Positions 5,001 through 58,200 of a stretch of DNA of 64,000 nucleotides are shown piece by piece. Below the pieces are notes generated by a model. The model had not been told where the DNA came from. It made no database searches and saw nothing but the letters and a program-made list of their open reading frames with translations. Source of the stretch: Stegostoma tigrinum (taxonomy: Eukaryota); the NCBI RefSeq assembly GCF_030684315.1, contig NC_081362.1:97261187-97325186 (forward strand), written 5' to 3'. A program made the position numbers and the translations under genes. How positions within the stretch are numbered: position 1 is the first letter of the stretch; every line of letters starts with the position of its first letter.

Positions 5001-5660
5001 CCTTAAAATGGCCACCCAAGTGGACAGGGTTGTTAAGAAAGCATATGGTGTTTTGGCTTTCATTAACAGGGGGATTGAGTTTAAGAGTTGTGAGATCTTG
5101 TTGCAGCTGTATAAAACTTTGGTTAGACTGCACTTGGAATACTGCGTCCAGTTCTGGTCGCCCTATTATAGGAAAGATGTGGATGCTTTGGAGAGGGTTC
5201 AGAGGAGGTTTACCAGGATGCTGCCTGGACTGGAGGGCTTATCTTATGAAGAGAGGTTGACTGAGCTCGGACTTTTCTCATTGGAGAAAAGGAGGAGGAG
5301 AGGGGACCTAATTGAGGTATACAAGATAATGAGAGGCATAGATAGAGTTGATATCCAGAGACTATTTCCCAGGGCAGAAATGGCTAACACGAGGGGTCAT
5401 AGTTTGAAGCTGGTTGGAGGAAAGTATAGAGGGGATGTCAGAGGCGGGTTCTTTACACAGAGAGTTGTGAGAGCATAGAATGCGTTGCCAGCAGCAGTTG
5501 TGGAAGCAAGGTCATTGGGGACATTTAAGAGACTGCTGGACATGCATATGGTCACAGAAATTTGAGTGTGCATACATGAGGATCAATGGTCGGCACAACA
5601 TCGTGGGCTGAAGGGCCTGTTCTGTGCTGTACTGTTCTATGTTCTATGTTCTATGTTCTA
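2048..5660 (+). mobile_element. Young 5'-truncated CR1 LINE: ORF1 SGNH esterase plus ORF2 APE endonuclease/RT, disabled
   Basis: ORF1 has GDSIVR, HIGTND and DGLHLN. ORF2 has ITETW, YYRPP, GDFN, SDH and DFSKAFDKV. Relative to the 48205 copy it has a 1-G frameshift near 4576 and stops near 4782 and 5476. (TGTTCTA)n tail; TSD TAAATCCAG at 2039-2047 and 5659-5667. Confidence 0.95.
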
Positions 5661-11635: not shown

Positions 11636-13140
11636 GTGATGAACTCCAGAGAATGGAAGAGGAACGCCTACACTAAGTTTCCACCGAACAGTGGATACCC
11701 AAGAAGTCTGCTCCGCAGATGCCGACAAAACAAACAACACTCAGGGGACACAGTACAACAGAAGACAATAGCAATTCTACCCTACATCAAAAATATATCA
11801 GAAATGACTACCAGGCGGTTAAGGCTGCATAAGGTTGTGATTACACACAACCCCATAGCAACACTGCACCAAATGTTATCACAGACTAAAGGCCACATAC
11901 TGACAGTAAACAAGACCAATGTGATATACAGAATCCCACGCAACGAGTGCAATAAACATTACATTGGACAAACAGGGAGGAAACTGACAACCAGGGGACA
12001 TGAACACCAGCCGGCAATAAAAAGACACGACCAATATTCACTTGTCCCAATGCACACAGACAATGAGGGCCATGATGCATTTTGGAAGGTCGAATTTGAA
12101 AGCTGAGTACAGGATTAAGGATAGGATTCTTGGCAGTGTGGAGGAACAGAGGGATCTTGGTGTGCAGATACATAGATCCCTTAAAATGGCCACCCAAGTG
12201 GACAGGGTTGTTAAGAAAGCATATGGTGTTTTGGCTTTCATTAACAGGGGGATTGAGTTTAAGAGTCGTGAGATCTTGTTGCAGCTCTATAAAACTTTGG
12301 TTAGACCGCACTTGGAATACTGCGTCCAGTTCTGGGCGCCCTATTATAGGAAAGATGTGGATGCTTTGGAGAGGGTTCAGAGGAGGTTTACCAGGATGCT
12401 GCCTGGACTGGAGGGCTTATCTTATGAAGAGAGGTTGACTGAGCTCGGTCTCTTTTCATTGAGGTCTACAAGATAATGAGGGGCATAGATAGAGTTGATA
12501 GCCAGAGACTATTTCCCAGGGCAGAAATGGCTAACACAAGGGGTCATAGTTTGAAGCTGGTTGGAGGAAAGTATAGAGGGGATGTCAGAGGCGGGTTCTT
12601 TACACAGAGAGTTGTGAGAGCATGGAATGCGTTGCCAGCAGCAGTTGTGGAAGCAAGGTCATTGGGTTTATTTAAGAGACTACTGGACATGCATATGGTC
12701 ACAGAAATTTGAGTGTGCATACATGAGGATCAATGGTCGGCACAACATCGTGGGCTGAAGGGCCTGTTCTGTGCTGTACTGTTCTATGTTCTATGTTCTA
12801 TCAGTTTGACTGGGACAAAGTGACTATACTGGGACAAGCGAACACCAGATCCGTGAGGGAATTTCTGGAAGTCTGGTTCCCAACATGGGACTCCATTAAC
12901 AAACACATAGAAACAGATCCTGTATACAGAGTGCTGCTAAAACAACAGAATTGGAAGGGACAAGACCATCACATCAGAGGATCATAAATCCACAAGGAAG
13001 GAGAACACCAACACCTCGATTAGAGGTCACACTGATGGTGTTGCCTAAAAGGGTAACGAAATGTCTGCACACCACAGAACAGCCAGTGAGCTAACAAACA
13101 GCTACATCCACAGCCGGAGCTACAAACTTTTGCTAAGACC
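11636..13140 (+). mobile_element. Penelope-like element (family B) 3' portion, interrupted by a CR1 insertion
   Basis: LPYIKNISE...NVIYRIP..EC..HYIGQTGRKL..R..EH; the frame resumes after the CR1 as QFDWDKVTIL...FLE; degenerate hammerhead core at ~13032-13065. Confidence 0.85.
12074..12801 (+). mobile_element. Young CR1 3' fragment nested in the PLE
   Basis: Near-identical to 4896-5660; (TGTTCTA)n tail; ~31-nt internal deletion between ATTG microhomologies near 12460. Confidence 0.93.
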
Positions 13141-17400: not shown

Positions 17401-18135
17401 GGCTATTCCAGTAAATGATGTCTGTGCAGTTTGGTGATGACGAATCAGAAGGCTACTATCCTACTTTACTGAATTCAGCACAATGTGGTTGACCTTGTTA
17501 TCTCAGATTCTCCAGCATCAGCAGTTCCGAGTATGTCTCCCACAAATCAGAATCATAATGTTATTTGACATAAGACTTTCCCAGCCTGGGTTACAGTGCA
17601 ATTTATACTGACCGAATCATAAATGGATGAAACAACCAAAGTAAAAGACACAAAAATCATGTAAAATAACAAAGAAGCAAGCAATTTAGCAGGAATAGGG
17701 AAGTGGTGGATGGGATATTAATGGCAAAGATGAATTAATACTGAATGAAAATTATAATGCAGTACACAGCTCCGACATACCGACATTGAAGTCCATGTAA
17801 TCATTAGCTGTTCAGAGCTCAGAATCTCAGAATTCTTTATTGCTCAGGAGGCCATTCAGCCCATTGAACTTGCTGCAGCTGTTCAAATGAGCAGCATTCC
17901 TCAGTGTGAATCCTCCAGCCTTTCCCACATACCCTTACACATCGTTTCTATCCAATTAACCCTCCAACAGCCTCTTGAATGAGAGGCCTAATTTATCTGG
18001 AGACTGTAACACAACCCCTGGAGTCCGGGTATCATTCTTGTAAACTGATGTACTCCCTCCAAGGCCAACCGATCCTTCCCAGGTCTGCTCCAAGCGGGAT
18101 CTAACCAGGGTTTTCTTGGTTTTGTTTCTATTCAG

Positions 18136-18351
18136 ATCGAGGGGACGCAGAGGCTCCTGAATAAAGACCTGGCTGAACTGATAAACAAGATGAAATTGGC
18201 CCAGCAGAATGCTGTGACCTCGCTGAGTGATGAGTGTAAGAAGCAGATGCTAACAGCTGCCCACACACTTGCTGTGGACTCCAAGAACCTGCTGGACGCT
18301 GTGGATCAGGCCAGGGTTCGCGCAGGACAAGCCAAACCACTCCCTAACTGA
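18136..18351 (+). CDS. PTK2B: PTK2B terminal coding exon (IEGTQRLLNKDLAELINKMKLAQQNAVTSLSDECKKQMLTAAHTLAVDSKNLLDAVDQARVRAGQAKPLPN*)
   Basis: TTCAG acceptor; AQQNAVTSLS.ECK is Pyk2-specific (FAK has AQQYVMTSLQQEYK); TGA at 18349-18351. Confidence 0.97.
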   Translation: MEGTQRLLNKDLAELINKMKLAQQNAVTSLSDECKKQMLTAAHTLAVDSKNLLDAVDQARVRAGQAKPLPN

Positions 18352-22106: not shown

Positions 22107-25100
22107 CCCTCTGACAGTGCGGCACTCCCTCAGCACTGATCCTCCGTCAGTGCCCGCTGCCTCAGCACTGACCTTCTGACAGTGTCCACTCCCTCAGTGC
22201 GGCGCTCCCTCAGCACTGACCCTCCAACAGTGCGGCGCTCCCTCAGCACTGACCCTCCGCCAGTGCCCGCTGCCTCAGCACTGACCCTTCGACAGTGACC
22301 ACTCCCTCAGCACTGACCCTCCGACAATGCAGCTCTCCCTCAGCACTGACCCTCTGATAGTGTGGCGCTCCCTCAGCAATGACGCTCCGACAGTGTCCAC
22401 TCCCTCAGCACTGTCCCTCCGACAGTGCCTGTTCCCTCAGCACTGACCCTCCAACATTGTCCACTCCCTCAGTGCGGCACTCCCTCAGCACTGACCCTCC
22501 GACAGTGACCGCTCCCTCAGTACTGACCCTCCAACAGTGCGGCACACCCTCAGCACTGACCCTCTGACGGTGTGACACGCCCTCAGCACTGACCCTCCGA
22601 CAGTGTGGCTCTTCCTCAGTACTGACCCTCCGACAGTGCCCGCTCCCTCAGCACTGACCCTCCGACAGTGACTGCTCCCTCAGCACTGACCCTCCAACGG
22701 TGACCGCTCCCTAAGCACTGACCCTCCGACAGTGTCTGTTCCCTCAGCACTGACCCTCCGACAGTGCGGCTCTCCCTCAGCACTGACCCTCTGACAGTGC
22801 GGCACTCCCTCAGCACAGACCCTCTGACAGTGCGGCTCTCCTTCAGCACTGACCCTCCGCCAGTGCCTGTTGCCTCAGCACTGACCCTCCGACAGTGACC
22901 ACTCCCTCAGCACTGACCCTCCGACAGTGCCCGCTCCCTCAGCACAGACCCTCCGACAGTGCGGCTCTCCTTCAGCACTGACCCTCTGCCAGTGCCTGTT
23001 GCCTCAGCACTGACCCTCCGACAGTGACCGCTCCCTCAGCACTGACCCTCCGTCAGTGCCCGCTGCCTCAGCTCTGACCCTCTGGCAGTGTCCAGTCCCT
23101 CAGTGCGGCGCTCCCTCAGCACTGACCCTCCGACAGTGTGGCGCTCCCTCAGCACTGACCCTCCGACAGTGCAGCGCTCCCTCAGCACTGACCCTCCGAC
23201 AGTGTGGCGCTCCCTCAGCACTGACCCTCCGACAGTGCCCGCTGCTTCAGCACTGACCCTCTGACAGTGTCCACTCCCTCAGTGCGGCGCTCCCTCAGAA
23301 CTGACCCTACGACACTGCAGCCCTCCCTCAGCACTGACCCTCCGACAGTGCCCGCTCCTTCAGCACTGACCGTCCGACAGTGCCCGCTCCTTCAGCACTG
23401 ACCCTCCAACAGTGACTGCTCCCTAAGCACTGACCGTCCGACAGTGTGGCACTCCCTCAGCACTGACCCTCCGACAGTGTGGCTCGCCCTCAGCACTGAC
23501 CCTCCGACAGTGTGGCTCTCCCTCAGCACTGACCCTCCGACAGTGCGGCGTTTCCTCAGTACTGATTCTCCGACAGTGCGGCACTTCCTCAGTACTGACC
23601 CTCCAACAGTGCCCGCTCCCTCAGCACTGACCCTCCGACAGTGCCCGCTCCCTCAGCACTGACCCTCCAACAGTGACTGCTCCCTAAGCACTGACCGTCC
23701 GACAGTGTCCACTCCCTCAGTGCGGCACTCCCTCAGCACTGACCCTCCGACAGTGTGGTGCTCCCTCAGCACTGACCCTCCGACAGTGTGGCTCTCCCTC
23801 AGCACTGACCCTTCGACAGTGCGGCTCTCCCTCAGCTTTGACCCTCCGACAGTGCGGCACTCCCTCAGCACTGACCCTCCGACAGTGCCCGCTCCCTCAG
23901 CACTGACCCTCCAACAGTGACTGCTCCCTCAGCACTGACCCTCCGACAGTGACTGCTCCCTCAGCACTGACCCTCCGACAGTGACTGCTCTCTCAGCACT
24001 GACCCTCCGACAGTGCCCGCTCCCTCAGCACTGACCCTCCGACAGTGTCCACTCCCTCAGTGCGGCGCTCCCTCAGCACTGGCCCTCCGACAGTGCGGCT
24101 CTCCGTCAGCACTGACCCTCTAACAGTGTGGTGCTCCCTCAGCACTGACCCTCCGACAGTGTGGCTCGCCCTCAGCACTGACCCTCCGACAGTGCGGCTC
24201 TCCCTCAGCTTTGACCCTCCGACAGTGCAGCGCTCCCTCAGCACTGACCCTCTGACAGTGCGGCACTCCCTCAACACTGACCCTCCGACAGTGTGGCGCT
24301 TCCTCAGCACTGACCCTCCGATAGTGCGGCACTCCCTTAGCACTGACCCTCCGACAGTGCCCGCTCCCTCAGCACTAACCCTCCGACAGTACCCGCTCCC
24401 TAAGCCCTGACCCTCCGACAGTGTCCACTCCCTCAGTGTGGCGCTCCCTCAGCACTGACCCTCCGATAGTGCGGCACTCCCTTAGCACTGACCCTCCGAC
24501 AGTGCCCGCTCCCTCAGCACTGACCCTCCGACAATACCCGCTCCCTAAGCCCTGACCCTCCAACAGTGTCCACTCCCTCAGTGTGGCGCTCCCTCAGCAC
24601 TGACCCTCCGATAGTGCGGCTCTCCCTCAGCGCTGACCCTCCGACAGTGCCCGCACCCTCAGCACTGACCCTCCGACAATGACCGCTCCCTAAGACTTGA
24701 CCCTCCGACAGTGTCCACTCCCTCAGTGTGGCGCTCCCTCAGCACTGACCCTCCGATAGTGCGGCACTCCCTCAGCACTGACCCTCCGACAGTACCCACT
24801 CCCTAAGCCCTGACCCTCCGACAGTGTCCACTCCCTCAGTGTGGCGCTCCCTCAGCACTGACCCTCCGATAGTGCGGCTCTCCCTCAGCACTGACCCTCC
24901 GACAGTGCCCGCTCCCTCAGCACTGACCCTCCGACAGTGCGGCGCTCCCTCAGCACTGACCCTTCGACAGTGCCCGCTCCCTCAGCACTGACCCTCCGAC
25001 AGTGCGGCACTCCCTTAGCACTGACCCTCCGACAGTGTCCACTCCCTCAGCACTGACCGTCCGACAGTGCGGCACTCCCTTAGCACTGACCCTCCGACAG

Positions 25101-25262
25101 TGTCACACTCCCTTAGCACTGACCCTCCGACAGTGCGCGCTCCCTCAGCACTGACCCTCCAACAGTGTCACACTCCCTCAGCACTGACCCTCCGACAGTG
25201 CGGCTTCCCTCAGCACTGACACTCCGACAGTGCGGCATTCCCTCAGCATTGACCCTCCGACA
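22107..25262. repeat. 33-bp minisatellite array (CCCTCAGCACTGACCCTCCGACAGTGCGGCACT)n, ~3.15 kb
   Basis: Direct tandem repetition; variation concentrated in the 7-8 nt after ACAGTG; C-rich on the + strand. Confidence 0.97.
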
Positions 25263-32661: not shown

Positions 32662-32713
32662 ATGTTTAGCCCATGGCCTGTAGTCCTGGCTCTGACTGTG
32701 TGTATTGCAGTGG
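32662..32713 (+). CDS. Exon 1 (leader, MFSPWPVVLALTVCIAV-G) of the novel double-VJ Ig-superfamily receptor
   Basis: ATG followed by a hydrophobic 17-aa signal peptide and a G|GTAAGT phase-1 donor, typical of Ig/TCR-type leader exons; joins in frame to 42432. Confidence 0.75.
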
Positions 32714-33026: not shown

Positions 33027-36000
33027 AGTGTGTGAGGGCGTGTTAGCTGTCACAGTGTGAGGGCGTGTGAGCAGTCAGTGTGAGGGAGTGTGAGCTGTCA
33101 CAGTGTGAGGGCGTGTGAGCTCTCGGTGTGAGGGAGTGTGTGTTGTCGTTGTGAGGGAGTGTGAGCTGCCACACTGTGAGGGGGTGTGAGCAGTCAGTGG
33201 GTGAAGGAGTGTGAGCTGTCACACTGTGAGGGCATGTGAGCTATCGGTGTGAGCTGTCACAGTGTGAGGGCTTGTGAGCAGTCAGTGTGAGGGAGTGTGC
33301 GCTGTCACAGTGTGAGGCATTGTCAGCTGTCGGTGTGAGGGTGTGTGAGCTGTCACATTGTGAGGGAGTGTGAGTAGCCAGTGTGTGAAGGAGTGTGAGC
33401 TGTCGGTGTGAGGGTGTGTGAGCTGTCACAGTGTGAGGGAATGTGAGCAGTCAGTGGGTGAAGGAGTGTGAGCTGTCGGTGAGAGGGCGTGTGAGCTGTC
33501 ACAGTGCGAGGGCATGTGAGCTGTCGGTGTGAGCTGTCACAGTGTGAGGCATTGTCAGCTGTCGGTGTGAGGGTATGTGAGCTGTCACAGTGTGAGGGAG
33601 TGTGCGCAGTCAGTGGGTGAAGGAGTGTGAGCTGTCGGTGTGAGGGCGTGTGAGCTGTCACACTGTGAGGAGGTGTGAGCAGTCAGTGGGTGGAGGAGTG
33701 TGAGCTGTCACACTGTGAGGGCGTGTGAGCTGTCACAGTTCGAGGGCATGTGAGCTGTCGGTGTGAGCTGTCACAGTGTGAGGGCGTGTGAGCAGTCAGT
33801 GACAGGGAGTGTGAGCTGTCACAGTGTGAGGGAGAGTGAGCAGTCAGTGTGAGGGAGTGTGAGCTGCCACAGTGTGAGGGAGTGTGAGCAGTCAGTGGGC
33901 GACGGAGTGTGAGCTGTCGGTGTGAGGGAGTGTGAGCTGTCACGGTGTGAGGTTGTGTTAGCTGTCACAGTGTGAGGGCGTGTGAGCAATCAGTGTGAGG
34001 GCGTGTGAGTTGTCGGTGTGAGGGAGTGTGAGTTGTCGTTGTGAGGGAGTGTGAGCTGTCACACTGTGAGGGCATGTGAGCTGTCACAGTGCGAGGGCAT
34101 GTGAGCAGTCAGTGTGAGGGCGTGTGAGTTGTCACAGTGTGAGGGTGTGTGAGCAGTCAGTGTGAGGGAGTGTGAGCTGTCACAGTGTGAGGCATTGTCA
34201 GCTGTCGGTGTGAGGGTGTGTGAGCTGTCACAGTGTGAGGGAGTGTGAGCAGTCAGTGGGTGAAGGAGTGTGAGCTGTCGGTGCAAGGGCGTGTGAGCTG
34301 TCACAGTGCGAGGGCATGTGAGCTGTCGGTGTGAGCTGTCACAGTGTGAGGGCGTGTGAGCAGTCAGTAGGTGAAGGAGTGTGAGCTGTCGGTGTGAGGG
34401 TGTGTGAGCTGTCACACTGTGAGGGGGTGTGAGCAGTCAGTGGGAGAAGGAGTGTGAGCTGTCACACTGTGAGGGCGTGTGAGCTGTCACAGTGCAAGGG
34501 CATGTGAGCTGTCGGTGTGAGCTGTCACAGTGTGAAGGCGTGTGAGCAGTCAGTGTGAGGGAGTGTGAGCTGTCACAGTGTGAGGCATTGTCAGCTGTCG
34601 GTGTGAGGGTGTGTGAGCTGTCACAGTGTGAGGGAGTGTGAGCAGTCAGTGGGTGAAGGAGTGTGAGCTGTCGGTGTGAGGGCGTGTGAGCTGTCACAGT
34701 GCAAGGGCATGTGAGCTGTCGGTGTGAGCTGTCACAGTGTGAGGGCGTGTGAGCAGTCAGTGTGAGGGAGTGTGAGCTGTCACAGTGTGAGGCATTGACA
34801 GCTGTCGGTGTGAGGGTGTGTGAGCTGTCACAGTGTGAGGGAGTGTGAGCAGTCAGTGGGTGAAGGAGTGTGAGCTGTCGGTGTGAGGGCATGTGAGCTG
34901 TCACAGTGCGAGGGCATGTGAGCTGTCGGTGTGAGCTGTCACAGTGTGAGGGCGTGTGAGCAGTCAGTAGGTGAAGGAGTGTGAGCTGTCGGTGTGAGGG
35001 TGTGTGAGCTGTCACACTGTGAGGGGGTGTGAGCAGTCAGTGGGAGAAGGAGTGTGAGCTGTCACACTGTGAGGGCGTGTGAGCTGTCACAGTGCGAGGG
35101 CATGTGAGCTGTCAGTGTGAGCTGTCACAGTGTGAGGGTGTGTGAGCAGTCAGAGTGAGGGAGTGTGAGCTGTCACAGTGTGAGGCATTGTCAGCTGTCG
35201 GTGTGAGGGTGTGTGAGCTGTCACAGTGTGAGGGAGTGTGAGTAGTCAGTGTGTGAAGGAGTGTGAGCTGTCGGTGTGAGGGTGTGTGAGCTGTCACACT
35301 GTGGGGATGTGTGAGCAGTCAGTGGGTGAAGGAGTGTGAGCTGTCACACTGTGAGTGCGTGTGAGCTGTCACAGTGCGAGGGCATGTGAGCTGTCGGTGT
35401 GAGCTGTCACAGTGTGAGGGCGTGTGAGCAGTCAGTGACAGGGAGTGTGAGCTGTCACAGTGTGAGGGAGTGTGCGCAGTCAGTGGGTGAAGGAGTGTGA
35501 GCTGTCGGTTTGAGGGTGTGTGAGCTGTCACACTGTGAGTAGGTGTGAGCAGTCAGTGGGTGAAGGAGTGTGAGCTGTCACACTGAGGGCGGGTGAGCTG
35601 TCACAGTGCGAGGGCATGTGAACAGTCAGTGTGAGGGAGTGTGAGCTGTCACAATGTGAGGCATTGTCAGCTGTCGGTGTGAGGGTGTGTGAGCTGTCAT
35701 AGTGTGAGGGAGTGCGAGCAGTCAGTGGGTGAAGGAGTTTGAGCTGTCGGTGTGAGGGTGTATGAGCTGTCACTGTGTGAGGGCGTGTTAGCTGTCACAG
35801 TGTGAGGGCGTGTGAGCAGTCAGTGTGAGGGAGTGTGAGGGCGTGTGAGCTGTCACAGTGTGAGGGCATGTGAGCTGTCATAGTGTGAGGGCGTGTGAGC
35901 TGTCGGTGTGAGGGAGTGTATGCTGTCGGTGTGAGGGTGTGTGAGCTGTCACAGTGTGAGGGAGTGTGAGCAGTCAGTGGGTGAAGGAGTGTGAGCTGTC

Positions 36001-37650
36001 GGTGTGAGGGTGTGTGAGCTGTCACAGTGTGAGGACGTGTTAGCTGCCACAGTGTGAGGGCGTGTGAGCAGTCAGTGTGAGGGTGTGTGAGGGCGTGTGA
36101 GCTGTCACAGTGTGAGGGCGTGTGCGCTGTCACAGTGCAAGGGCATGTGAGCTGTCGGTGTGAGCTGTCACAGTGTGAGGATGTGTGAGCAGTCAGTGTG
36201 AGGGAGTGTGAGCTGTCACAGTGTGAGGCATTGTCAGCTGTTCGTGTGAGGGTGTGTGAGCTGTCACAGTGTGAGGGAGTGTGAGCAGTCAGTGGGTGAA
36301 GGAGTGTGAGCTGTCGGTGTGAGGGCGTGTGAGCTGTCACAGTGCGAGGGCATGTGAGCTGTCGGTGTGAGCTGTCACAGTGTGAGGGCGTGTGAGCAGT
36401 CAGTGGGTGAAGGAGTGTGAGCTGTCGGTGTGAGGGTGTGTGAGCTGTCACTGTGTGAGGGCGTGTTAGCTGTCACAGCGTGAGGGCGTGTGAGCAGTCA
36501 GTGTGAGGGAGTGTGAGGGCGTGTGAGCTGTCACAGTGTGAGGGCATGTGAGCTGCCATAGTGTGAGGGAGTGTGAGCTGTCGGTGTGAGGGAGTGTGTG
36601 CTGTCGGTGTGAGGGAGTGTAAGCTGTCACAGTGTGAGGGCGTGTGAGCAGTCAGTGGGTGAAGGAGTGTGAGCTGTAGGTGTGAAGGCATGTGAGCTGT
36701 CACAGTGTGAGGGCTTGTGAGCTGTCGGTGTGAGGGAGTGTGAGCTGTCACAGTGTGAGGGAGTGTGTGCTGTCGGTGTGAGAGAGTGTGAGGGCGTGTG
36801 AGCTGTCACAGTGTGAGGGCATGTGAGCTGTCATAGTGTGAGGGAGTGTGAGCTGTCAGTGTGAGGGAGTGTGTGCTGTCGGCGTGAGGGAGTGTGAGCT
36901 GTCAATGTGTGAGGGCATGTGAGCAGTCAGTGTGAGGGAGTGTGAGGGCGTGTGAGCTGTCAGTGTGAGGGCTTGTGAGCTGTCACAGTGTGAGGGCTTG
37001 TGAGCTGTCACAGTGTGAAGGCGTGTGAGCAGTCAATGGGTGAAGGACTGTGAGCTGTCGGTGTGAAGGCATGTGAGCTGTCACAGTGTGAGGGCTTGTG
37101 AGCTGTCGTTGTGAGGGCGTGTGAGCTGTCGGTGTGAGGGAGTGTGAGCTGTCACAGTGTGAGGGAGTGTGAGCAGTCAGTGGACGAAGGAGTGTGAGCT
37201 GTCAGTGTGAGGGCGTGTGAGCTATCACGGTGTGAGAGAGTGTGAGCTGTAACAGTGTGAGGGCGTGTGAGCAGTCAGTGTGAGGGTGTGTGAGCTGTCG
37301 GTGTGAGGAAGTGTGAGCTGTCACAGTGTGAGGGAGTGTGGGCTGTCGGTGTGAGGGACTGTGAGCAGTCAGTGTGAGGGAGTGTGAGCTGTCACACTGT
37401 GAGGGAGTGTGAGCAGTCAGTGTGTGGGAGTGTGAGCTGTCAGTGTGAAGGAGTGTGAGCTGTCACAGTGTGAGGGAGTGTGGGCAGTCAGTGTGTGGGA
37501 GTGTGAGCTGTCAGTGTGAAGGAGTGTGAGCTGTCGGTGTGAGGGAGTGTGAACTGTCACAGTGTGAGGGAGTGTGGGCTGTCAGTGTGAGGGTGTGTCA
37601 GCTGTTGGTGTGAGGGAGTGTGAGCTGTCAGTGTGAAGGAGTGTGAGTTA
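33027..37650. repeat. ~4.6-kb G-rich modular satellite (GTGTGAGCTGTCACAGTGTGAGGG / GTGTGAGCAGTCAGTGGGTGAAGGA / GTGTGAGCTGTCGGTGTGAGGG)
   Basis: Direct inspection shows ~22-25-bp modules in shuffled order with larger duplicated blocks; it lies in intron 1 of the receptor gene. Confidence 0.97.
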
Positions 37651-42431: not shown

Positions 42432-42785
42432 GTCCTCATGCATGTCCCATTCTCGTTCAGTTCCCGAAAGTTGTGAAAGTAGCAGAGGGTAAAGCTGTGC
42501 ATCTTCAGTGCAGTTTGGAGAGAAGCAGCAGAAATAACACAGTGGAGAATTACACTGTCCATTGGTACCACCCCGAAAACAAGTCGCACATCTTATTGAG
42601 CCACTTTGCAGGCGGCAGCGTTTACCGATCAAAAGGATTCTCTGAGCGGTTCCAGCTTTCCAGAAATGTAACCAGTAACAGTTACATTCTGACCATCAGA
42701 GACCTGAAGCTCACTGACACCAACACCTACATCTGTGGGATTTGGGGAAATATTTTTGGAAAAGGAACTCGACTAAATGTAACCA
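42432..42785 (+). CDS. Exon 2: V-set Ig domain 1 with germline-joined J-like strand
   Basis: CACAG acceptor, A|GTAAGT donor, phase 1/1, 354 nt. Motifs VHLQC, VHWY, RFQLSR, YILTI, DTNTYIC and FGKGTRLNV. Confidence 0.92.
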
Positions 42786-44243: not shown

Positions 44244-44588
44244 GTGCAAATGCCCCAAACCTTCACCAGTATCTGATCCCAGAACATGTCACAGAGGGAC
44301 ACACTGTCCAGTTACAGTGCACCATGAGGAACGCCGCAGTGACACACACCGATGTTCACTGGTACCGGGAGCGAACAGAGAATAACACAGAGTGGGTTTT
44401 AACATATGATGTGAGGAACATCACACAAAGGAGCCCTGGATTCACTGATCGATTCCAGTCTTGCAGAGACCCCTCCAATAACAGCTTCATTCTGACCATC
44501 ACAAACGTGCAGCCCAATGACACTGGGGTCTATTACTGTAAAGTGTGGGGAGATATCAATGGGAATGGATCCCAGCTGACTGTAATGG
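44244..44588 (+). CDS. Exon 3: V-set Ig domain 2 with germline-joined J-like strand
   Basis: Pyrimidine tract + AAG acceptor, G|GTATGT donor, phase 1/1, 345 nt. Motifs VQLQC, VHWY, GFTDRF, FILTITNVQPNDTGVYYC and NGNGSQLTV. Confidence 0.92.
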
Positions 44589-44715: not shown

Positions 44716-44850
44716 TTCCTGCAGTGGAAATGAACAGAGAGTTGTGGATAGTCTGGATCAGTGTGGGAGCTGCTGTGGGAGTTACTGTCATCGCTGGAGC
44801 TGCTCTTCTCTTCTGTATCAGATGCACTCGGCCTGGGAAACAGTCATCCT
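44716..44850 (+). CDS. Exon 4: transmembrane helix and juxtamembrane CxxC (LWIVWISVGAAVGVTVIAGAALLF-CIRCTRPGKQSS)
   Basis: TCCAG acceptor (alternative in-phase CAG at 44724), T|GTAGGT donor, phase 1/1; 24-residue uncharged hydrophobic stretch. Confidence 0.88.
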
Positions 44851-45047
44851 GTAGGTGGAAATCAATCTTTCACTGAAACAATATTAATAAGGAATGATCC
44901 AGTTTGAGTGAATGGAACCACATATTGAAGTTAAATGAGAATGAACACCAGAATCAGATACAAAGAGAAATGTTTATTATTGTCCTCCGGTGATTACTTC
45001 ACTCTGTTTGTGCATCATTTAAAAGTAAACACTGTCCTCTTTTGTAG

Positions 45048-45121
45048 CTTCTCCCCAAGATACTAGAGAACACAGTCTGATGCTGGAATATGAAAACATT
45101 TCTGATTTCAGAAACACAAAG
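45048..45121 (+). CDS. Exon 5: cytoplasmic (SPQDTREHSLMLEYENISDFRNTK)
   Basis: CTCTTTTGTAG acceptor, AAG|GTAAGT donor; phase 1/0 gives an open frame with a tyrosine motif. Confidence 0.82.
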
Positions 45122-45494
45122 GTAAGTGGAATCAGGCTATCAGTTTCCTGCTTTTCTCTGTTATAGCAGCTTCGTTGTTGTAGATATGAAGTTTTATTGA
45201 CCTTTCGGTATCACCTCAGTACTGCCTCAGTCCTGGTTGTGAATGTCAAAAACATGGGTCTCTGCTCACCTCACCACTGGTCACAGTGTTCCAACATTCC
45301 CTTAGTAATGCCAGAGCTGTGCATGGCTTTAAACAAGCACACATCCCTAACAACATCACAGTGGTTACCATTGACCCAAAACTCTACTGGACTTGCTGCA
45401 TCAATACGCTGGCTGCAAGAGCAGGTCAGAGGCTGGGAATACTGCAGTAAGGAACTCACCCTCTGACTCCCCAAAGCCTGCCCACTATAAAGCC

Positions 45495-47170
45495 ATAGAC
45501 ATGTACACTACAGAGAAAGTTCTTTTAGCCCATCATGCCTACATCAGTCAAACACGGCTACCTAACTGCTCTAATATCATTGCCCAGCACTCGGTCCATA
45601 GCCTTGTGTGGCTTGGCATTGCAAATGCACATCTAACTATTCCTTCTATGTTATGAGGATTTCTACCTCTACCACCCTTACAGGTAGTGAGTTGCAGATT
45701 CTCACCATCTTTTGAGTGAAAAAGATTTATCTCATGTCGTCTCTAAACCTCCTGACCCTTCCCTTAAATCTATGCCCCCTGGTAATTGATCTCTCCATCA
45801 AAGGGGAAAAATTCCTTCCTGTCAACCCTGTCTTCATTCCTAATAAAGTTATCCCTCTCAATCATGTCCCCCCTCAGTCTCCCCTGCTCTAAGGAAAACA
45901 ACCCCAGTCAATCTAATCTCTATGTAACAAACTTCCCTGCACAGGCACCATCCTGGTAAATCTCCCTCTGCACCCTCTCCAGTGCTGTCACACCCCTCCA
46001 ATCATGGGGGTTCCAGAACTGCTCACAATACTCTAGCAGGGACCTCGTGTTTTACACAGTTCCAACATCACCTCCCTGTGCTTAAACTCTAATAAAGGCA
46101 GGCATACCATGTGCCTTCTTAGCCAGTTTATCAAGCTGTTCTGATTCCCTAAGAGACTGGGGGGAATGTACACCAAGGTCCCTCTGATCCCTCATGTTTC
46201 CCAGGGTCCTACAGTTCATCGTCTATTCCCTTACCTTGTTTGTTCTGCCCCAGTGCATTACCTCACAATTAACCAGATTGAATCCCATTTGCCATTGATC
46301 AGTCCATCCGACCAGTCTGTCTATGTCCTCCTGCAATCTAAGGTTATCCTCTTCACTATTGACCACTGTGAACCTACCTAAACCCTCCTGCGTTCAAGTC
46401 TAAATCATTTATACAAAGCACAAACATCAAGGGCCCTCACACAGATTCCTGTGTAATCCCACTGGACACAGGCTTCCAATCACATGGTCACCCCTTAACA
46501 GTCACCCTCTGCTGCTGCTGCTACTTGGCCGGCTGTAGATCCAATTTGCCGAGTTTCCTTGGATACCCATGGGAACTGCCCTTTACAACAGTGTCCCATG
46601 TGGGACCTTATCAATAGTCTTGCTGAAATCTGAGCAGACTATGTCAAAAACATTGCCCTGTTCTACATACACAGTAACTTCTTCAAAAAATTCAATCAAG
46701 TCTGCTAGACATGGCCTCCCTTTAACAAAACCACGCTGTCTGCGATTAAATAATCCCTGCCTCACCAAGTACAAATTAATTCAGTCCCTCCGAATTGCTC
46801 CCAATAGTTTCCCCACCATTGAGGCTAGACTGAGCAATCTGTACTTCCCTGGTTTATCCTTGTTCCCTCCTTGAATAACAGCACCACACTGACTGTCCTT
46901 CAGTCCTCTGGCACTTCTCCTGTAGCCAGAGAGGAATTGGAAAATTATTCCCAGTGCCTCTGCTGTTTGCTCCATTGTCTCCCTCACCAGCCTGGGATAC
47001 ATTTCCAGCTTGGAGATTTTTCTACTTTTAAGCCTGCCAGACCACTCAGGCTCTCCTGTCTGTCTGTGTTGATCTCTGTAATGGTATCACAGTCCTTACC
47101 CCTGATCTCTGTACCCACATTGTCCTTCTCACTGTGACACACAATAACCTGACCTACATCCGCTGGCTCC
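45495..47170 (-). mobile_element. Old degenerate CR1, antisense
   Basis: Minus-strand QRGFVKGRPCLADLIEFFEEV, DFSKTIDKVPH and PGKYRLLSL motifs. Confidence 0.8.
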
Positions 47171-47179
47171 ACATACTTG

Positions 47180-47537
47180 TTTTCAATTCATTCACAGGTT
47201 GAGGGCATTGCTGGCTAGGCACATTTATTGCCCATCCCTAATTACTCAGAGGGCAGTTAAGAGTCAACCACATTGTTGTGGGTCTGGAGTCACATCTAGT
47301 CAGGACCAGGTAAGGATGGGAGATTTCCTTCCCTGAAGGGCATTAATGAACCAGATGGGTTTTTTCCGACAATCGACAATGGATTCATGGTCATCATTAG
47401 ATTCTTAATTCCAGATATTTAATGAATTCACATTCCACCATCTGCTGTGATGGGATCTGAACCCAGGTCCCTGGAATGTTATCTGCGTCTCTGGATTAAC
47501 TGTCCAGCGATAATACCACTAGGCCATTGCCTCCCCT
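47180..47537 (-). mobile_element. tRNA-derived SINE, antisense
   Basis: Reverse complement of the 54928-55280 family. Confidence 0.8.
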
Positions 47538-48204
47538 ATTACCATGTGGCACACCATGGGCCCAACTCTTCCCCTAGTCATCCTTTTACTCTGAACATAC
47601 CTGAAAAACTCAGGGTTTTCCTTTCTTTTATCTGCCAGTACCTTTTCAATGCCCCATTAGCCCTGCTAATCTCCTTTCCAAGTTCTCTCTTGGACATTCT
47701 ACACTCATCCAGGGATTTGGCTGTTTTGAGCTCTCAGTATCTGCCATAAACCACCCTTTTTCTCTTAATCCAGTGCTGTATATCCCTAGATAGCTAAGAT
47801 TCACAGCATTTGATAGTTTCAACCTTTTACTTTACAAGGCACAAGTCAGGAGTGTGATGGAATACTCCCCACTTGCCTGGGTGAGTGCAGCCTCAACAAC
47901 ACTCAAGAAGCTTAACACCATCCAGGACAAAGCAGCCGCTTGATTGGCACCACATCCGCAAGCATCCACTCCCTCCACCACCGACACTCAGTAGCAGCAG
48001 TGTGTACTATCTACAAGACGCACTGCAGAAATTCACCAAATATCCTCAGGCAGCACCTTCCAAATCCACGACCACTTCCATCTAGAAGGACAAGGGCAGC
48101 AGATGCATACAGGGTGTGGTGTTACCATGTATCTGGTGGATGGAAGTGGTCATGGGTCTGGAATGTGCAGCCTGAGGATCTTTGGCGAATTTCTGCAGTG
48201 TACT

Positions 48205-49901
48205 GCCCTAAATGAGTTTTTTGCTTCTGTCTTTACGAAAGAAACCAACTTTGTAGTGAATGAAACCTTTGAAGAGCAGGTGTGCATGCTGGAATGGATA
48301 GAGATAGACGAAGCTGATGTGCTGAAAATTTTGTCAAACATTAAGATTGACAAGTCGCCAGGCCCGGATCAGATTTGTCCTCGGCTGCTTTGGGAAGTGA
48401 GAAATGCAATTGCTTCGCCACTTGCGAAGATCTTTGCAACCTCGCTCTCCACTGGAGTCGTACCTGAGGACTGGAGAGAGGCAAATGTAATTCCTCTCTT
48501 CAAGAAAGGAAATAGGGAAATCCCCGGCAATTATAGACCGGTAAGTCTCACGTCTGTCGTCTGCAAGGTGTTAGAAAGGATTCTGAGGGATAAGATTTAT
48601 GACCATCTGGAAGAGCATGGCTTGATCAAATACAGTCAACACGGCTTTGTGAGGGGTAGGTCATGCCTTACAAACCTTATCGAGTTTTTTGAGGATGTGA
48701 CTAGAAAGGTTGATGAGGGTCGAGCTGTGGATGTGGTGTATATGGACTTCAGTAAGGCATTTGATAAGGTTCCCCATGGTAGGCTCATTCAGAAGGTCAG
48801 GAGGAATGGGATACAGGGGAACTTAGCTGCTTGGATACAGAATTGGCTGGCCAACAGAAGACAGCGAGTGGTAGTAGAAGGAAAATATTCTGCCTGGAAG
48901 TCAGTGGTGAGTGGGGTTCCACAGGGCTCTGTCCTTGGGCCTCTACTGTTTGTAATTTTTATTAATGACTTGGACGAGGGAATTGAAGGATGGGTCAGCA
49001 AGTTTGCAGACGACACAAAGGTCGGAGGTGTCGTTGACAGTGTAGAGGGCTGTTGTAGGCTGCAGCGGGACATTGACAGGATGCAGAGATGGGCCGAGAG
49101 GTGGCAGATGGAGTTCAACCTGGATAAATGCGAGGTGATGCATTTTGGAAGGTCGAATTTGAAAGCTGAGTACAGGATTAAGGATAGGATTCTTGGCAGC
49201 GTGGAGGAACAGAGGGATCTTGGTGTGCAGATACATAGATCCCTTAAAATGGCCACCCAAGTGGACAGGGTTGTTAAGAAAGCATATGGTGTTTTGGCTT
49301 TCATTAACAGGGGGATTGAGTTTAAGAGTCGTGAGATCTTGTTGCAGCTCTATAAAACTTTGGTTAGACCGCACTTGGAATACTGCGTCCAGTTCTGGGC
49401 GCCCTATTATAGGAAAGATGTGGATGCTTTGGAGAGGGTTCAGAGGAGGTTTACCAGGATGCTGCCTGGACTGGAGGGCTTATCTTATGAAGAGAGGTTG
49501 ACTGAGCTCGGTCTCTTTTCATTGGAGAAAAGGAGGGGGAGAGGGGACCTAATTGAGGTATACAAGATAATGAGAGGCATAGATAGAGTTGATAGCCAGA
49601 GACTATTTCCCAGGGCAGAAATGGCTAGCACGAGGGGTCATAGTTTTAAGCTGGTTGGTGGAAAGTATAGAGGGGATGTCAGAGGCAGGTTCTTTACGCA
49701 GAGAGTTGTGAGAGCATGGAATGCGTTGCCAGCAGCAGTTGTGGAAGCAAGGTCATTGGGGTCATTTAAGAGACTGCTGGACATGTATATGGTCACAGAA
49801 ATTTGAGGGTGCATACATGAGGATCAATGGTCGGCACAACATTGTGGGCTGAAGGGCCTGTTCTGTGCTGTACTGTTCTATTTTCTATGTTCTATGTTCT
49901 A
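48205..49901 (+). mobile_element. Young 5'-truncated CR1 with uninterrupted RT and C-terminal domain
   Basis: Open ORF to 49806 with FADD catalytic motif; (TGTTCTA)n tail; short TGTACT flanking duplication. Confidence 0.95.
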
Positions 49902-51331
49902 TGTACTTTGTAGATAGCACGCACCCACTCACCATCCTGACTTGGAAATATATCACCGTTCCTTCAATGTTGCTGGGTCATAATTCAGGAATACCCTCCC
50001 GAAGGGCATTGTGGGTCGACCTACAGCACATGGGCTGCAGCGGTTCAAGAAGGCAGCTCAGCCCCACCTTCTCAAGAGGCAAATAGGGACGGGTAGTAAA
50101 TGCTATGACATCCACATCCCACAAAAAGGACGGGATGTGGCAGTGTGATTAAGGCAGGAAACAGTGACCCCAGGTTTCCAACAGATAGCTCCTAGCCTGC
50201 TTGAACAAAGAGTCAGATCCTGGGAGGATGATGGGCCTTAGTGATGAATTAAGTATCTTAAAGTCATGGCACCTTGCCATGACAGAAACCTTGCAAAAAG
50301 AAATTGAAATTTACATTTGATTTGAATGGAAGAAAAATGAATCCAACACTAGTATTCCAAACTGAAATAAAGGGAACTTATGTGGCCAGAAAGCCAAGAG
50401 ATTTCTGATGTGAGCTAGCATACTAGACTCCCAGGCTAGGAGATAGACCAATAGAGACAAAATGGCAGACACTAAGGGAGATATTTCAGTATACCTAGAA
50501 TAATTGTACTCCGACTATAAAGAAAAATTCTGAAGGGCCAACACACCACCTCTAGTTAACTATAGAACTTAAGGAAAACATCAAACCTAAGGAAACATCA
50601 TCTAACAATACAAAGGTGAGCAGCAGGTTAGACAATTAGCCAAAATATGAAGAATGCTAGAAAATGACTAAAAGGCTATTGAGATGGAAAAAATTAGAGG
50701 AGAAGAGGAAGTTAGCTAGAAATGTAAAAATGAATAACAAATGCTTTGGTAGGCATGAAAAGGAAAAATGTAAATAAAAGTAGATGCTGGTCTGTGAGAG
50801 AGAGTGTGAGAATGTTGATCCAATTGCAGATAAGGAAATGACAAATGAAATGCACTAACATGTTTCTTCTACCCTCACCACTGGGGTTACACAATCACAT
50901 TCCAGTTCCAAAGAGGAGCCAAATTCGACTCAACTGTTGACTGTTTTTCTCTCCACAGATGCTACCAGACCTGCTAAGTTTCTCCAGTTATTTTAGATTT
51001 TGAGCATCCCAGTATTTTGCATTTATCTCCAATGGATTTATTGGTGATTATATTTGTAAGCTTTGAGAAGCATCTGTTTTGTTTTTCCTTTATTCATTCA
51101 TGGGATGAGACTGTCACTGTCCAGGGTAGCATTTATCACCCGTCACTAAATGCCCAGAGGGAAGTTAAGAGTCAACCACATTGCTGTGGGTCTGGAGTCA
51201 CATGTAGGCCAGACCAGGTAAGGGTGGCAGTTTCCTTCCCTAAAGGATGTTAGTGAACCAGATGGGTTGTTCCAAAAATTGGCAATACTCTTAATTGCAG
51301 ATTTTTAAAAATTGAATTCAAATTCCACCAT

Positions 51332-51554
51332 AGATAATAAGGTGTAGAGCTAAATGAACACAGCAGGCTAAGCAGCATCAGAGAAGCAGGAAAGCTCACG
51401 TTTCAGGCCTAGACCCAAAATTCATTTCTGAAGAAGGGCCTATGCCTGAAACATCAGCTTTCCTGCTCCTCTGATGCTGCTTGGCCTGCTGTGTTCATCC
51501 AGCTCTACACCTTGTTATCTCAGATTCTCCAGCATCTGCAGTTCATACAATCTC
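51332..51554. mobile_element. Fold-back PLE-A mini-element inserted in an antisense SINE
   Basis: Inverted arms, CTGAAGA...GAAAC core, 14-bp TSD TCAAATT(C/T)CACCAT at 51318-51331 and 51555-51568. Confidence 0.8.
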
Positions 51555-51865
51555 TCAAATTTCACCATTGTGGGATTCGAACCCAGTTCTCCAAAACATT
51601 ATCTAGATCTCTGGATTAACAATTTGATTATAATACCACTATGCCATTGTCTCCCCCTGATATTTCAATATATCCTGTACTGTGTCCAGTTCTTCAATAT
51701 CCTTTTGCTGGAGAACTTGCCACAATCCTCCAAATCTTCAAACCAGGTGAAAATTAAACAAGTTTGTAGTTCTTGTGAATGATGAACAAGATGCTAAACA
51801 TCAGTGCAAACCAGTGAAGAACATTGTACATGTGACAATGTGTACACTGCAGAGCCATAACAAGA

Positions 51866-52251
51866 CTTTTCATTGGAGAAAAGGAGGAGGAGAGGGGACC
51901 TAATTGAGGTATACAAGATAATGAGAGGCATAGATAGAGTCGATAGCCAGAGACTATTTCCCAGGGCAGAAATGGCTAGCACGAGGGGTCATAGTTTTAA
52001 GCTGGTTGGTGGAAAGTACAGAGGGGATGTCAGAGGCAGGTTCTTTACGCAGAGAGTTGTGAGAGCATGGAATGCGTTGCCAGCAGCAGTTGTGGAAGCA
52101 AGGTCATTGGGGTCATTTAAGAGACTGCTGGACATGCATATGGTCACAGAAATTTGAGGGTGCATACATGAGGATCAATGGTCGGCACAACATTGTGGGC
52201 TGAAGGGCCTGTTCTGTGCTGTACTGTTCTATGTTCTATGTTCTATGTTCT
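51866..52251 (+). mobile_element. Young CR1 3' fragment
   Basis: Near-identical to 49515-49900; (TGTTCTA)n tail; AAGACT on both flanks. Confidence 0.92.
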
Positions 52252-52334
52252 AAGACTCTATAGTACCTATTTTACAATCTGTCAGTCCAGAGTTTCTATC
52301 CTTCAGTAATTTATATCATTCCATTTGGTTACAG

Positions 52335-52376
52335 AAACCAGATGATGTCCAAGTTGATGCTAATCAGATTTATATG
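52335..52376 (+). CDS. Exon 6: cytoplasmic (KPDDVQVDANQIYM)
   Basis: TTACAG acceptor, ATG|GTAAGG donor, 42 nt, phase 0/0; acidic residues before a Tyr; unique sequence among repeats. Confidence 0.65.
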
Positions 52377-52478
52377 GTAAGGAACCTAAAATCCAGTCAG
52401 TTCAGTCATTCCAAGCAACAATGTTCTATCAAAAAGTATTCATTCGTGTTTTTGTTTTCTCTCCTTTCTGTTAATAAG

Positions 52479-52496
52479 AATGTGCCTTCAAAATGA
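52479..52496 (+). CDS. Exon 7: terminal coding exon (NVPSK*), completing YMNV
   Basis: Long polypyrimidine tract then TAAG acceptor after a 102-bp intron; the total CDS of 1020 nt is a multiple of three. Confidence 0.6.
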   Translation, partial: NVPSK

Positions 52497-55280: not shown

Positions 55281-58200
55281 AGGAGTTTATAGATGCATGA
55301 ATTATCAGGGAATTAAGGTCAGGGCCAGATCAGCCAGGACCTTAAAGAGTGGTGGACAGTCTGGGAGGGATTGACTGGCCTATTCCTGCTCCTATTTCTA
55401 ACATTATTATTTGTCACCTTCTGATAATTCCAACATTCATCTGATCTATTCTCGAGACACCTAATGCTGGCCTGAATCTTGCTAACTGTGTTCTCACTCT
55501 CATCAAGTCCCATTTCCCCCATGATCACTGACCTACACTGACTCCTGGTTGAACAACATCCCAATTTTTAAATTCTTAGTCTTGTTTTCAGAACTTTCGA
55601 TGGCCTTTTCACTTTCTATCTCTGTAATAACCTCCTGCGACTTTCTGGGATTTCTACCCTGCTCTAATTCTGGCCGTTGGTGTATTCTTATTTTAATCAC
55701 ATTCTCCTGTTCCTGTGGCTGTCTGGAACCTAAGCTCTGGAACCTCCCTCACTATACCTCTCCACCTCTGCCCCTCCCTCCCTTTCTTCCCTCACCCTCT
55801 GCACTTCTCCATTTCTTTCACTCACCTCTACCCCTGTGCAGCTCTCCACCATTCCCACATTCTCCCTCAACTTTCTCCCACTCTTCCCTCCAACTTTCCC
55901 CATCTGTATCTCTACACATCTCCACTTCTGCTTTTCCCTCTTCTCCTCTCCAGTGCTTTACCTCTCCATTTCTCCATTGCTCCAGTTTGTGTACAATGTT
56001 CGTCTCCTTGCCTGAGAAAGGGTACCATTTTAGATTTTAAATGCCTTAAGGGCTATGGGGAGAAAGCAGGAATATAGCACTGAGATAGAGGGTTGGCCAT
56101 GATCAGATTGCTTGGTGGAACAGGTTCGGAGGGCCAAATGGCCTGCTCCTGCTTCTAGTTTCTACATTTCTACCTTTCTATCTCTCTATTCCACCATCCT
56201 ACCACCTACTCTTATCTCCATTACCTCATCTCTCCAACTGTTCACCTTTTCATACCTGTCCCTTAAAGCATTAACCAGGTTAAAGGGTACTGTATCAATG
56301 AAAGTTAACTTGTCCCTATTTTAAATGAATGACCATGCCAGTCACTGGCCTTTAACCTATTCCTATTTGATTTGAACAGACAATGAACATGAACTTCAAT
56401 ACTGCACCAGTTGGAACAGCATTTCTTGAACCTATGGAAGGATCTCCTTGCTCATTTCCTTGCTCCTCAGCAGCAGCCTCTAAATCACCAGGACTCCCAC
56501 TTGCTGTAGGTTTGTCTGTAATCAGTAGACACAGATTGGATCACACACTCCTCTCCTGCATTTCTGTGAGCCTAACCCTACCCTGATGTTAGCGATGATT
56601 CTAAATGACTGCTCCAGACTGAGGAACAAATCCTTCGAATGTACAGCTCAATGCTCAGCGCCCACCTAGCGTCACTGCAATCATTTCTGAGGATTGAACC
56701 TTTCAGTAGGGCCTGTACTGGCCTTGAAGTGGGGAAGGAGAGCTGGAGAACCACCAGAATAATAACAGCATTACTAGGATTAAATTATGAGAACGGGTTC
56801 CATAGATTAGGTCTGTACTCCCTTGAGTTGGAATAATTGAGTGGGAGATTTAGTTAAGACATTCAGGAAGTGGATACAGAGGAATTACTAATTGTTGAGG
56901 ATCAAAACAACTGACTGAATCTTTAAATGTGACCAATTAGAGATGAGGTGGTTGTGAATTTGAAAGAGTTTTCCCCTCCCAGTGACAAACAGTGACTGAG
57001 CGTGAACTGGCCTCTGTCCAGGCATGGAATGTGTCATCTTGAATATCCCATCTTTGGCTGGCAGTTTCATCAATCTAAGCAATTTAATTACAAAAAAATA
57101 TCCAGCAGGATTCTCCTTCTCCTGCTTTCTGCTCATCCCTTTATGGAGGTCTGTCCCTCGTACAAGCTGTGACCAAAATGTAACCTCTTTGTCCAGATCC
57201 TGGTCTGTTTGCTGTCCTTGAAGAGAGGCGATTAGATTACCCTGTGAACACACTGTTCTGTAGCATGACCTGACCCTGACACAGGGGTCAGACAGTTACA
57301 TCCTGGGAGCTAGGTGGGAAGTGAGGACAGCTGCCTTTAGAGACCAGCTGTGATGGCATGGGGGGGTGGGGGGGGGGGTGTCACGCCCATTATCTGCCAT
57401 CCCTTGCTGATGATGGGACAGGAACTAAATGCCCTGTGTCCTTCAGCCCATTGAGACTCATTGCTGGTCAATTCATAGCTGCCCAAAAGCTGGCCCCATC
57501 CCCAGTGGGACTTTACCAGCAGCACAAGCGGCATATTCCCACCCAGAGCAGGTCACCTGATGTCTCCCTGAGGATTTAGGGTTGAGCTGAGAATGGGAGG
57601 TCCCTCCTAAAACAAGGAGCTTGTGGTCCAGGTCACACCTTCAGAACATCAATGGCCTGCTCAGCTGGAAGACTGCTCCCTCCTATGACCAAGTGCCTGA
57701 GCCCACATTCACCAAAGAGGTTTATCTCCATGATCCTCAATCTCACCCAGCTTGGGTCCTCACCATCTCAGCTTCTCTGGGACCTTCCTGCCGTCCCAAT
57801 ACTGGCCATGACCCACAGTGGTGCTGCTGAGTCTGAAGGAATAAGGACCCTGCGATTGGCCAACAGCTCTGCAAAGGATAGAAGATCTTATATTTACGTA
57901 GTACCCTTTAACATGGTAACACCTTCCTGGAAACAGGGAATGCTGGATGTTCAGTGCCTAGGGACTGTAAAAGCTAGTTGTGATTTTTACAGCCTGTGCT
58001 GATAGCACTCCCTGACATTCTGGACAGTGAACAGAGACACCACCTTGGTGTAAATTCCAAAAATGTAAAGTTTCTTAGTTTCCTTCACAACATATTTCTG
58101 GCTGCACCAGTCCACATGCCTCATAGGCTCTGCTTGTTTATTACTTATTCTCAATAAACGTGAAAGGTTACTGGGAGCAGGTGGGAATGTGGTTTAATCA

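Follow-up and report, generated by a model that had tools for sequence, protein, structure and literature searches.

The 64-kb stretch of Stegostoma tigrinum DNA analyzed here (the window, G000:C11:97261187-97325186) contains on its (+) strand a seven-exon gene that, judged from its sequence, is a real shark immune receptor gene. It belongs to a receptor family whose V-type immunoglobulin (Ig) domains best match those of Ig sigma-2 light chains, and its cytoplasmic tail, which carries two Y-x-N tyrosine sites, appears to be a module of that family. A preliminary description had proposed a raft-targeted adaptor of the LAT/LAT2 type fused to Ig ectodomains. That single-gene claim fails because, among six orthologues, the CxxC motif is present in none and the LxYxxI motif at YENI in two; the bigger result is the receptor family together with its sigma-2 link.

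The gene starts with a leader, followed by two exons for V-type Ig domains that include their own J strands, a transmembrane (TM) exon free of charged helix residues, and three tail exons (C1-C3), all introns being GT-AG and in phase, with a 339-codon frame open throughout. The preliminary description concerned its last four exons. The leader exon (32662..32713, from ATG to a phase-1 donor), which ranked top in an exon scan, lies 9.7 kb upstream of V1 and shares 15 of 17 residues with the whale shark orthologue, P0053. The V1 exon (42432..42785; Pfam V-set, E 3e-15), a germline-joined VJ-type domain, opens with the short second part of the split leader and holds its FGxG strand within the exon; V2 (44244..44588; Pfam V-set, E 7e-21) is a second VJ-type domain. 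Both are V-set domains with a J-like G-x-G strand at the end, and together they form an ectodomain of about 235 residues. The TM exon (44716..44850) encodes an uncharged helix (44742-44813) with a GxxxG motif (GAAVG, 44766-44780), directly followed by a CxxC motif (CIRC, 44814-44825). C1 (45048..45121) carries Y-x-N site 1 (YENI, 45089-45100, Y310), the 42-nt exon C2 (52335..52376, phase 0/0) ends in the second tyrosine, Y333, plus one residue, and C3 (52479..52496) supplies the N-V of site 2 (YMNV) and the stop codon, in agreement with RefSeq model P0276 and orthologue models. The tail has only these two tyrosines; the uncharged TM, adjoining CIRC, and paired Y-x-N sites reported in the preliminary description were thus confirmed.

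Transcript support comes from contigs of four runs of relatives, which we presume to be RNA. A contig from run X5 is spliced V2>TM>C1 and continues with 30 letters matching the C2 exon at 27/30, and run X2 is a second run with the TM>C1 junction; the leader-V1, V1-V2, and C2-C3 joints are taken from gene models (RefSeq and orthologue models in the case of C2-C3). The tail of P0276 is identical, letter for letter, to that of the window gene. Among five candidate alternative GT/GC donors for the TM exon, three break the frame, and a GC donor at 44824, which keeps the frame and removes the second cysteine, found no support; the GT at 44851 is the donor observed spliced. A possible alternative last exon without tyrosines (56380..56586, +), which would lose site 2, is suggested by gene-model evidence, having 86% identity to the terminal part of P0089, isoform X1 of the whale shark model, and an in-frame AG acceptor.

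Conserved Y-x-N sites and the family origin of the tail

Orthologues of the same layout were identified in Rhincodon (P0053), Chiloscyllium (P0060), Carcharodon (P0063), Cetorhinus (P0064), Scyliorhinus (P0070), and Mustelus (P0256), and were aligned with the window gene to give a seven-sequence alignment. All seven sequences have both tyrosines and both of the asparagines at +2, and since most other tail columns vary, the paired Y-x-N sites are more than chance. A hydrophobic +3 residue is also kept at both sites in 6/6 orthologues, as is the TM GxxxG motif, and the residue at -1 of site 1 is acidic in all seven sequences. The proposal of two Grb2-type sites in a receptor with an uncharged TM was borne out with respect to the sites and the TM, binding of Grb2 being predicted. 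A p85-type YxxM motif is, as had been stated, absent from the window gene, but site 2 of the Chiloscyllium orthologue is YVNM; the sequences vary at this site between IYMN, IYEN, IYVN, and IYTN.

The gene is one member of an expanded cluster. When the S. tigrinum genome (G000) was searched with V2, 150 candidates were scored and 126 matches obtained. Of these, 56 lie within C11:96.06-97.78 Mb, where we count about 52 distinct V exons and 21 rows contain stops. The cluster extends over ~1.7 Mb and adjoins PTK2B. We examined 88 family proteins, many of them isoforms, 70 being TM-bearing and 18 being models without a TM. Of the 88, 28 have ITIM/ITSM (immunoreceptor tyrosine-based inhibitory or switch motif) tails, 16 an intrinsic ITAM (the corresponding activation motif; 13 also with Y-x-N), and eight have at least two Y-x-N sites only, with a further 18 having other or truncated tails; the ITIM/ITSM, ITAM, and Y-x-N classes all map to the C11 cluster. 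A charged TM residue is present in one of the 70 TM-bearing proteins. The family occurs in sharks, rays, and chimaera, and, among the family matches listed (120 of 126), those with a species name, which two rows lack, are from cartilaginous fish throughout. Its members have been hidden because database labels scatter them as SIRP-, pIgR-, IGSF3-, and Ig-chain-like. No prior description was found in the titles and abstract openings of the literature on the family and its relatives, and the family is apparently undescribed, although existing papers and their supplements may already list the cluster, perhaps as NCR3H or VJ genes.

Comparison within the family bears on where the tail came from. 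Pairing of the window tail with tails of the class combining YEN and ITAM gave scores reached by 0/2000 shuffles in 12 of 12 pairings; for three ITIM-class control tails, 7, 323, and 154 of 2000 shuffles reached the score. In ITAM-class paralogues, the homologue of the C1 exon is the one that carries YEN. The window gene, an ITAM paralogue, and a long-tail paralogue have in common a 42-nt phase-0 exon whose last two residues are a tyrosine and one more; C2 agrees in length, phase, and placement of the tyrosine with the paralogue exon that holds the first ITAM tyrosine. C2 is identical to the ITAM paralogue exon at 20/42 nt (13/5000 shuffles as high) and to the long-tail paralogue exon at 21/42 nt (6/5000 shuffles). 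The following exon either completes an ITAM or gives N-hydrophobic and a stop. Given the homology to the YEN and ITAM tails and the shared 42-nt exon, the tail is, as far as sequence can tell, a family module related to activating members and no imported adaptor.

The ITAM class was seen in rays, squalomorph sharks, Heterodontus, and carpet sharks, whereas the short Y-x-N class was seen in galeomorph sharks only. Because the ITAM class spans more species, a Y-x-N tail may have arisen from an ITAM-class tail by replacement of the last, ITAM-completing exon, the first ITAM tyrosine thereby becoming part of a Y-x-N site. An ITAM-completing exon in place of that encoding NVPSK, raised in the preliminary description, does exist in paralogues, but there is no plausible one downstream of C2: two pattern matches in ~41 kb both lie >36 kb away and are unlike the family exon.

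Other members of the cluster show further tail and stalk architectures. A single-V paralogue at C11:96.179-96.199 Mb (L011-L013; P0087) has a near-identical TM exon, also with CIRC, and a long tail with a duplicated 129-codon exon, YANR twice, and a terminal YVNL; its sawshark counterpart (P0088) has YENI, YANQ, and YMNF. The small YETV tail exon of an ITAM paralogue (L048:8087-8593; C11:96.5166-96.5171 Mb, -) is present in at least seven tandem copies with 76-nt spacing. From C11:97363310 onward (L002, L018, L019), 1546 open codons rich in N, S, G, and T repeats directly continue a family V exon and encode a putative very long glycosylated stalk; skate (P0075) and bamboo shark (P0080) are similar.

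Relationship of the ectodomain to sigma-2 light chains

For all 38 of 38 family V domains, sigma-2 was the best match among the non-family V groups of the comparison set, including V1; V2 is 44% identical to sigma-2 V, and at its start the V1 exon shares the split-leader register of sigma-2. A profile search gave 5547 matches at E up to 0.001, of which the best 150 include the family, light chains (among them a cluster in which one member bears the name Ig sigma-2), and chimaera members. Antibody-type V domains make up the best 60 of 2138 PDB matches to V1; the structure predicted by AlphaFold for P0053 is poor (mean pLDDT 57.8). In 240/240 pattern-caught domains, the J glycine follows the second cysteine at a distance of seven residues, which points to one ancestral joined exon. 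The labels lambda, kappa, sigma, TCR, IgH, SIRP-like, and NITR-like used for the compared groups are our own, and we take them to follow from familiar features and the position of the recombination signal sequence (RSS).

Trees were built from V domains without the third complementarity-determining region (CDR3) and J (96 columns), 74 of 108 extracted domains being kept after removal of 34 redundant or mis-cut ones; a second tree step removed six more, i.e. four long-branch rows and the L042/L043 pair. One clade, with support of 93/82 and 86/91, neither starred, unites the family with sigma-2, a VJ-C1 of coelacanth, and the joined VJ-C1 gene L034/P0223 in trees that contained zero NCR3 or UrIg sequences and whose root is unsure. 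Within them the family lies outside shark sigma-2 and is not nested in it. A long-branch row labelled NITR-like from its features, the source name of which is 'pIgR-like', fell outside the clade.

Several closer or different relationships were considered. A single clade of the family with lambda was rejected (p-AU, from the approximately unbiased test, 0.005). Forced grouping of the family with L026, a germline-joined sigma-2 V-J with an octamer upstream and a CDR3 of the length found in the receptor family (L026:8681-9033; C60:3.6337 Mb), gave a p-AU of 0.055, by which derivation of the family from this short-CDR3 gene is neither rejected nor demonstrated; in the tree, L026 nests among recent sigma-2 genes. 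An initial 'UrIg-like' label for L034/P0223 was wrong: L034 (C282:118.2-118.5 kb, -) belongs to a light-chain-like VJ-C1 gene, of which it is the joined VJ exon, and has P0223 of Heptranchias as its orthologue. More single-exon VJ-type genes, L042 and L043 (C60:7.85 and 8.44 Mb) and L046 (C1:169.0 Mb), lie outside the family clade.

The likeness to sigma-2 (also sigma-cart, type I, NS5, or sigma-prime) thus extends to best V match, joint clade, and leader register, but the receptor lacks the C1 domain, RSS, and octamer of sigma-2, and has tandem V exons, a TM, and a signalling tail. No exact RSS nonamer is present anywhere within the 64-kb window, and no octamer within 1 kb of the receptor-gene leader, the latter counting against a light-chain-style promoter; at sigma-2 loci the octamer was found at L026 and not at L024. 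The sigma-2 cluster is on C60, whereas the receptor family is on C11.

Since coelacanth, gar, and turtle have sigma-2 genes with V and J joined in the germline (PMC5985310), the simplest reading is co-option of an old germline-joined sigma-2 VJ exon. In its full form, which we regard as evenly balanced between right and wrong, this holds that such an exon was converted into innate paired receptors in cartilaginous fish over 400 million years ago, with tandem copies, tails of ITIM, ITAM, and Grb2-binding types, and a last exon that switches an ITAM to an immunoglobulin tail tyrosine (ITT) motif. That the family is instead sister to sigma-2, was never split, and survives as a relic of the VJ exon invaded by RAG, seems to us improbable.

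Other non-rearranging receptors offer partial parallels. NITRs of ray-finned fish and other paired receptors of the Ig superfamily are likewise clustered and non-rearranging, with in-exon J-like strands (bioRxiv 10.1101/2021.06.11.448072), and have both activating and inhibitory forms. NITRs differ in combining V and I domains, whereas both domains here are V-set with the same J-like end, and activating members of the present family carry their own ITAM instead of a charged TM residue. UrIg/UrIg2 and NCR3/NCR3H share single-exon, non-rearranging VJ domains (PMC12227049 and PMC11999971), but UrIg has VJ plus three or more C1 domains (PMC12227049) and the receptor zero, and NCR3 has one VJ domain as opposed to two. 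By eye, the printed UrIg V sequence is unlike the family V.

Signalling by the receptor and competing explanations

We propose that the gene probably encodes a two-V-domain surface receptor which works as a Grb2-binding, co-stimulatory co-receptor of the ITT type, resembling DNAM-1. Ligand would drive clustering of the receptor, perhaps aided by GxxxG, Src-family kinases would phosphorylate both Y-x-N sites, and the phosphorylated sites would recruit Grb2/Grap/Gads; the recruited adaptors may then tune signals from partner receptors, with Syk/ZAP70 signalling not being started by the receptor alone. Co-stimulation is the sign of the signal that we have chosen. Palmitoylation is possible in S. 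tigrinum and would form no conserved part of the mechanism.

The DNAM-1 precedent is as follows: PMC4647266 describes a conserved D/EIYV/MN motif that binds the Grb2 SH2 domain via pY-x-N and couples to Vav-1, PI3K, and PLC-gamma1, pYxNx being the consensus recognized by that domain. Site 2 of the receptor matches the IY-x-N core of this motif. DNAM-1, TIGIT, and CD96 resemble the receptor in having an Ig ectodomain (of two domains in DNAM-1) and a conserved Y-N tail motif (PMC4647266 and PMC10045777), whereas the receptor differs from DNAM-1 in having two Y-x-N sites versus one, sigma-2-like VJ domains, and a place in an expanded paired-receptor cluster. The likeness, drawn from descriptions, means 'works like' and carries no claim of orthology. 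Language-model look-alikes include CD7 and CD226 clusters, which we treat as a lead.

Several observations weigh against this proposal. The DNAM-1 motif is incomplete, site 2 having Q or L and no D/E two before the tyrosine. The direction of change from ITAM to Y-x-N is read solely from the fact that the ITAM class occurs across more species. The RefSeq model P0276 starts inside V2, without leader and V1, and the window copy has cysteines at 22, 209, and 287 where whale shark has other residues, so relaxed selection on this copy is possible. An ITT-like motif may also inhibit, as TIGIT recruits SHIP1 through one (PMC10045777), and six of the seven sequences have one site with the ITIM consensus, at a position that is not constant.

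The last two points are shared with the alternative that we find the most credible, albeit unlikely: that the receptor is inhibitory or dampening, through Grb2-SHIP1 as in TIGIT, through SHP at an ITIM-like site, or by competing for ligand with ITAM paralogues, whose second ITAM tyrosine the window gene lacks. The ITIM consensus ([ILVS]xYxx[ILV]) shifts between sites, however, being present at site 1 in three of the seven sequences, at site 2 in a different three, and at neither in Mustelus, whereas the +2 asparagine is invariant; moreover, 28 of the 88 family proteins are already dedicated ITIM/ITSM members. The switchable ITIM suggested at LEYENI did not hold up as a conserved feature, LxYxxI being kept there in 2/6 orthologues.

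An origin of the tail from a LAT/LAT2-type adaptor module with CxxC palmitoylation at its center is, on sequence grounds, largely refuted, and we consider it very improbable. In its favor, CIRC adjoins the TM, both tyrosines are Y-x-N, and four of the six orthologues have a single juxtamembrane cysteine, in patterns other than CxxC. The motif resemblances to LAT, LAT2, CD4, and CD28 are general background, as is the fact that LAT/LAT2 have a very short extracellular part and about 9-10 tail tyrosines; the receptor has a large ectodomain and two. Of the motifs for which conservation had been at issue, Y-x-N at YENI and YMNV is kept in 6/6 orthologues but CxxC in 0/6, Mustelus and Scyliorhinus having zero cysteine at the TM end, and a cysteine near the TM end is commonplace in the family (60/70 TM-bearing proteins), CxxC being present in 1/70. 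The sole other CxxC protein is a paralogue in the same genome at C11:96.186 Mb, the TM exon of which is identical to that of the window at 124/135 nt; similarity around it is limited to 179 nt, which suggests gene conversion between the two exons. Homology of the tail to family YEN and ITAM tails also argues against adaptor fusion, and no LAT/LAT2 Pfam row was obtained for 6/6 proteins at E up to 10, with filters that drop weak matches. A search of G000 for a LAT2 gene gave no match, but neither did its controls, so the result is uninformative.

Equally improbable is a decaying copy, real in other sharks and drifting or mainly truncated in S. tigrinum: the three unshared cysteines, the truncated RefSeq model, and a 4.6-kb satellite in the leader intron would fit it, but the 339-codon open frame, canonical splice sites, length equal to that of the whale shark orthologue, and identities by region of 109/117, 99/114, 38/44, and 36/43 argue against it.

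Genomic surroundings and implications

The satellite in the leader-V1 intron is the second of two long arrays in the window (22200-25262 and 33030-37647) and may explain the truncated RefSeq model. The C1-C2 intron contains a 603-codon reverse-transcriptase frame (47995-49806, +) of what we take, from familiar features, to be a CR1-like LINE (long interspersed nuclear element), and a second 3' fragment (51861-52157, +); related copies lie at 2531-5475 and 12021-12473. The upstream neighbor is PTK2B, the last coding exon of which (FAT domain) is at 18049-18348 (+). A PTK2B paralogue lies on C5 at 112.1 Mb, and C5 also has RSS-flanked, TCR gamma-like V genes at 3.0 Mb.

Few of the natural killer-type and paired immune receptors of sharks have been properly catalogued, and there is an active search for non-rearranging VJ genes, which may reveal how antigen receptors originated (PMC12227049, PMC10751288). 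A family whose V domains are closest to those of one light-chain isotype, with a fixed short CDR3, provides a testable case of whether parts moved from adaptive to innate receptors or the other way. Within it, a simple exon swap could convert an ITAM to a motif that binds Grb2. If the co-option of sigma-2 is true, a part of adaptive immunity would have been recycled into innate receptors.

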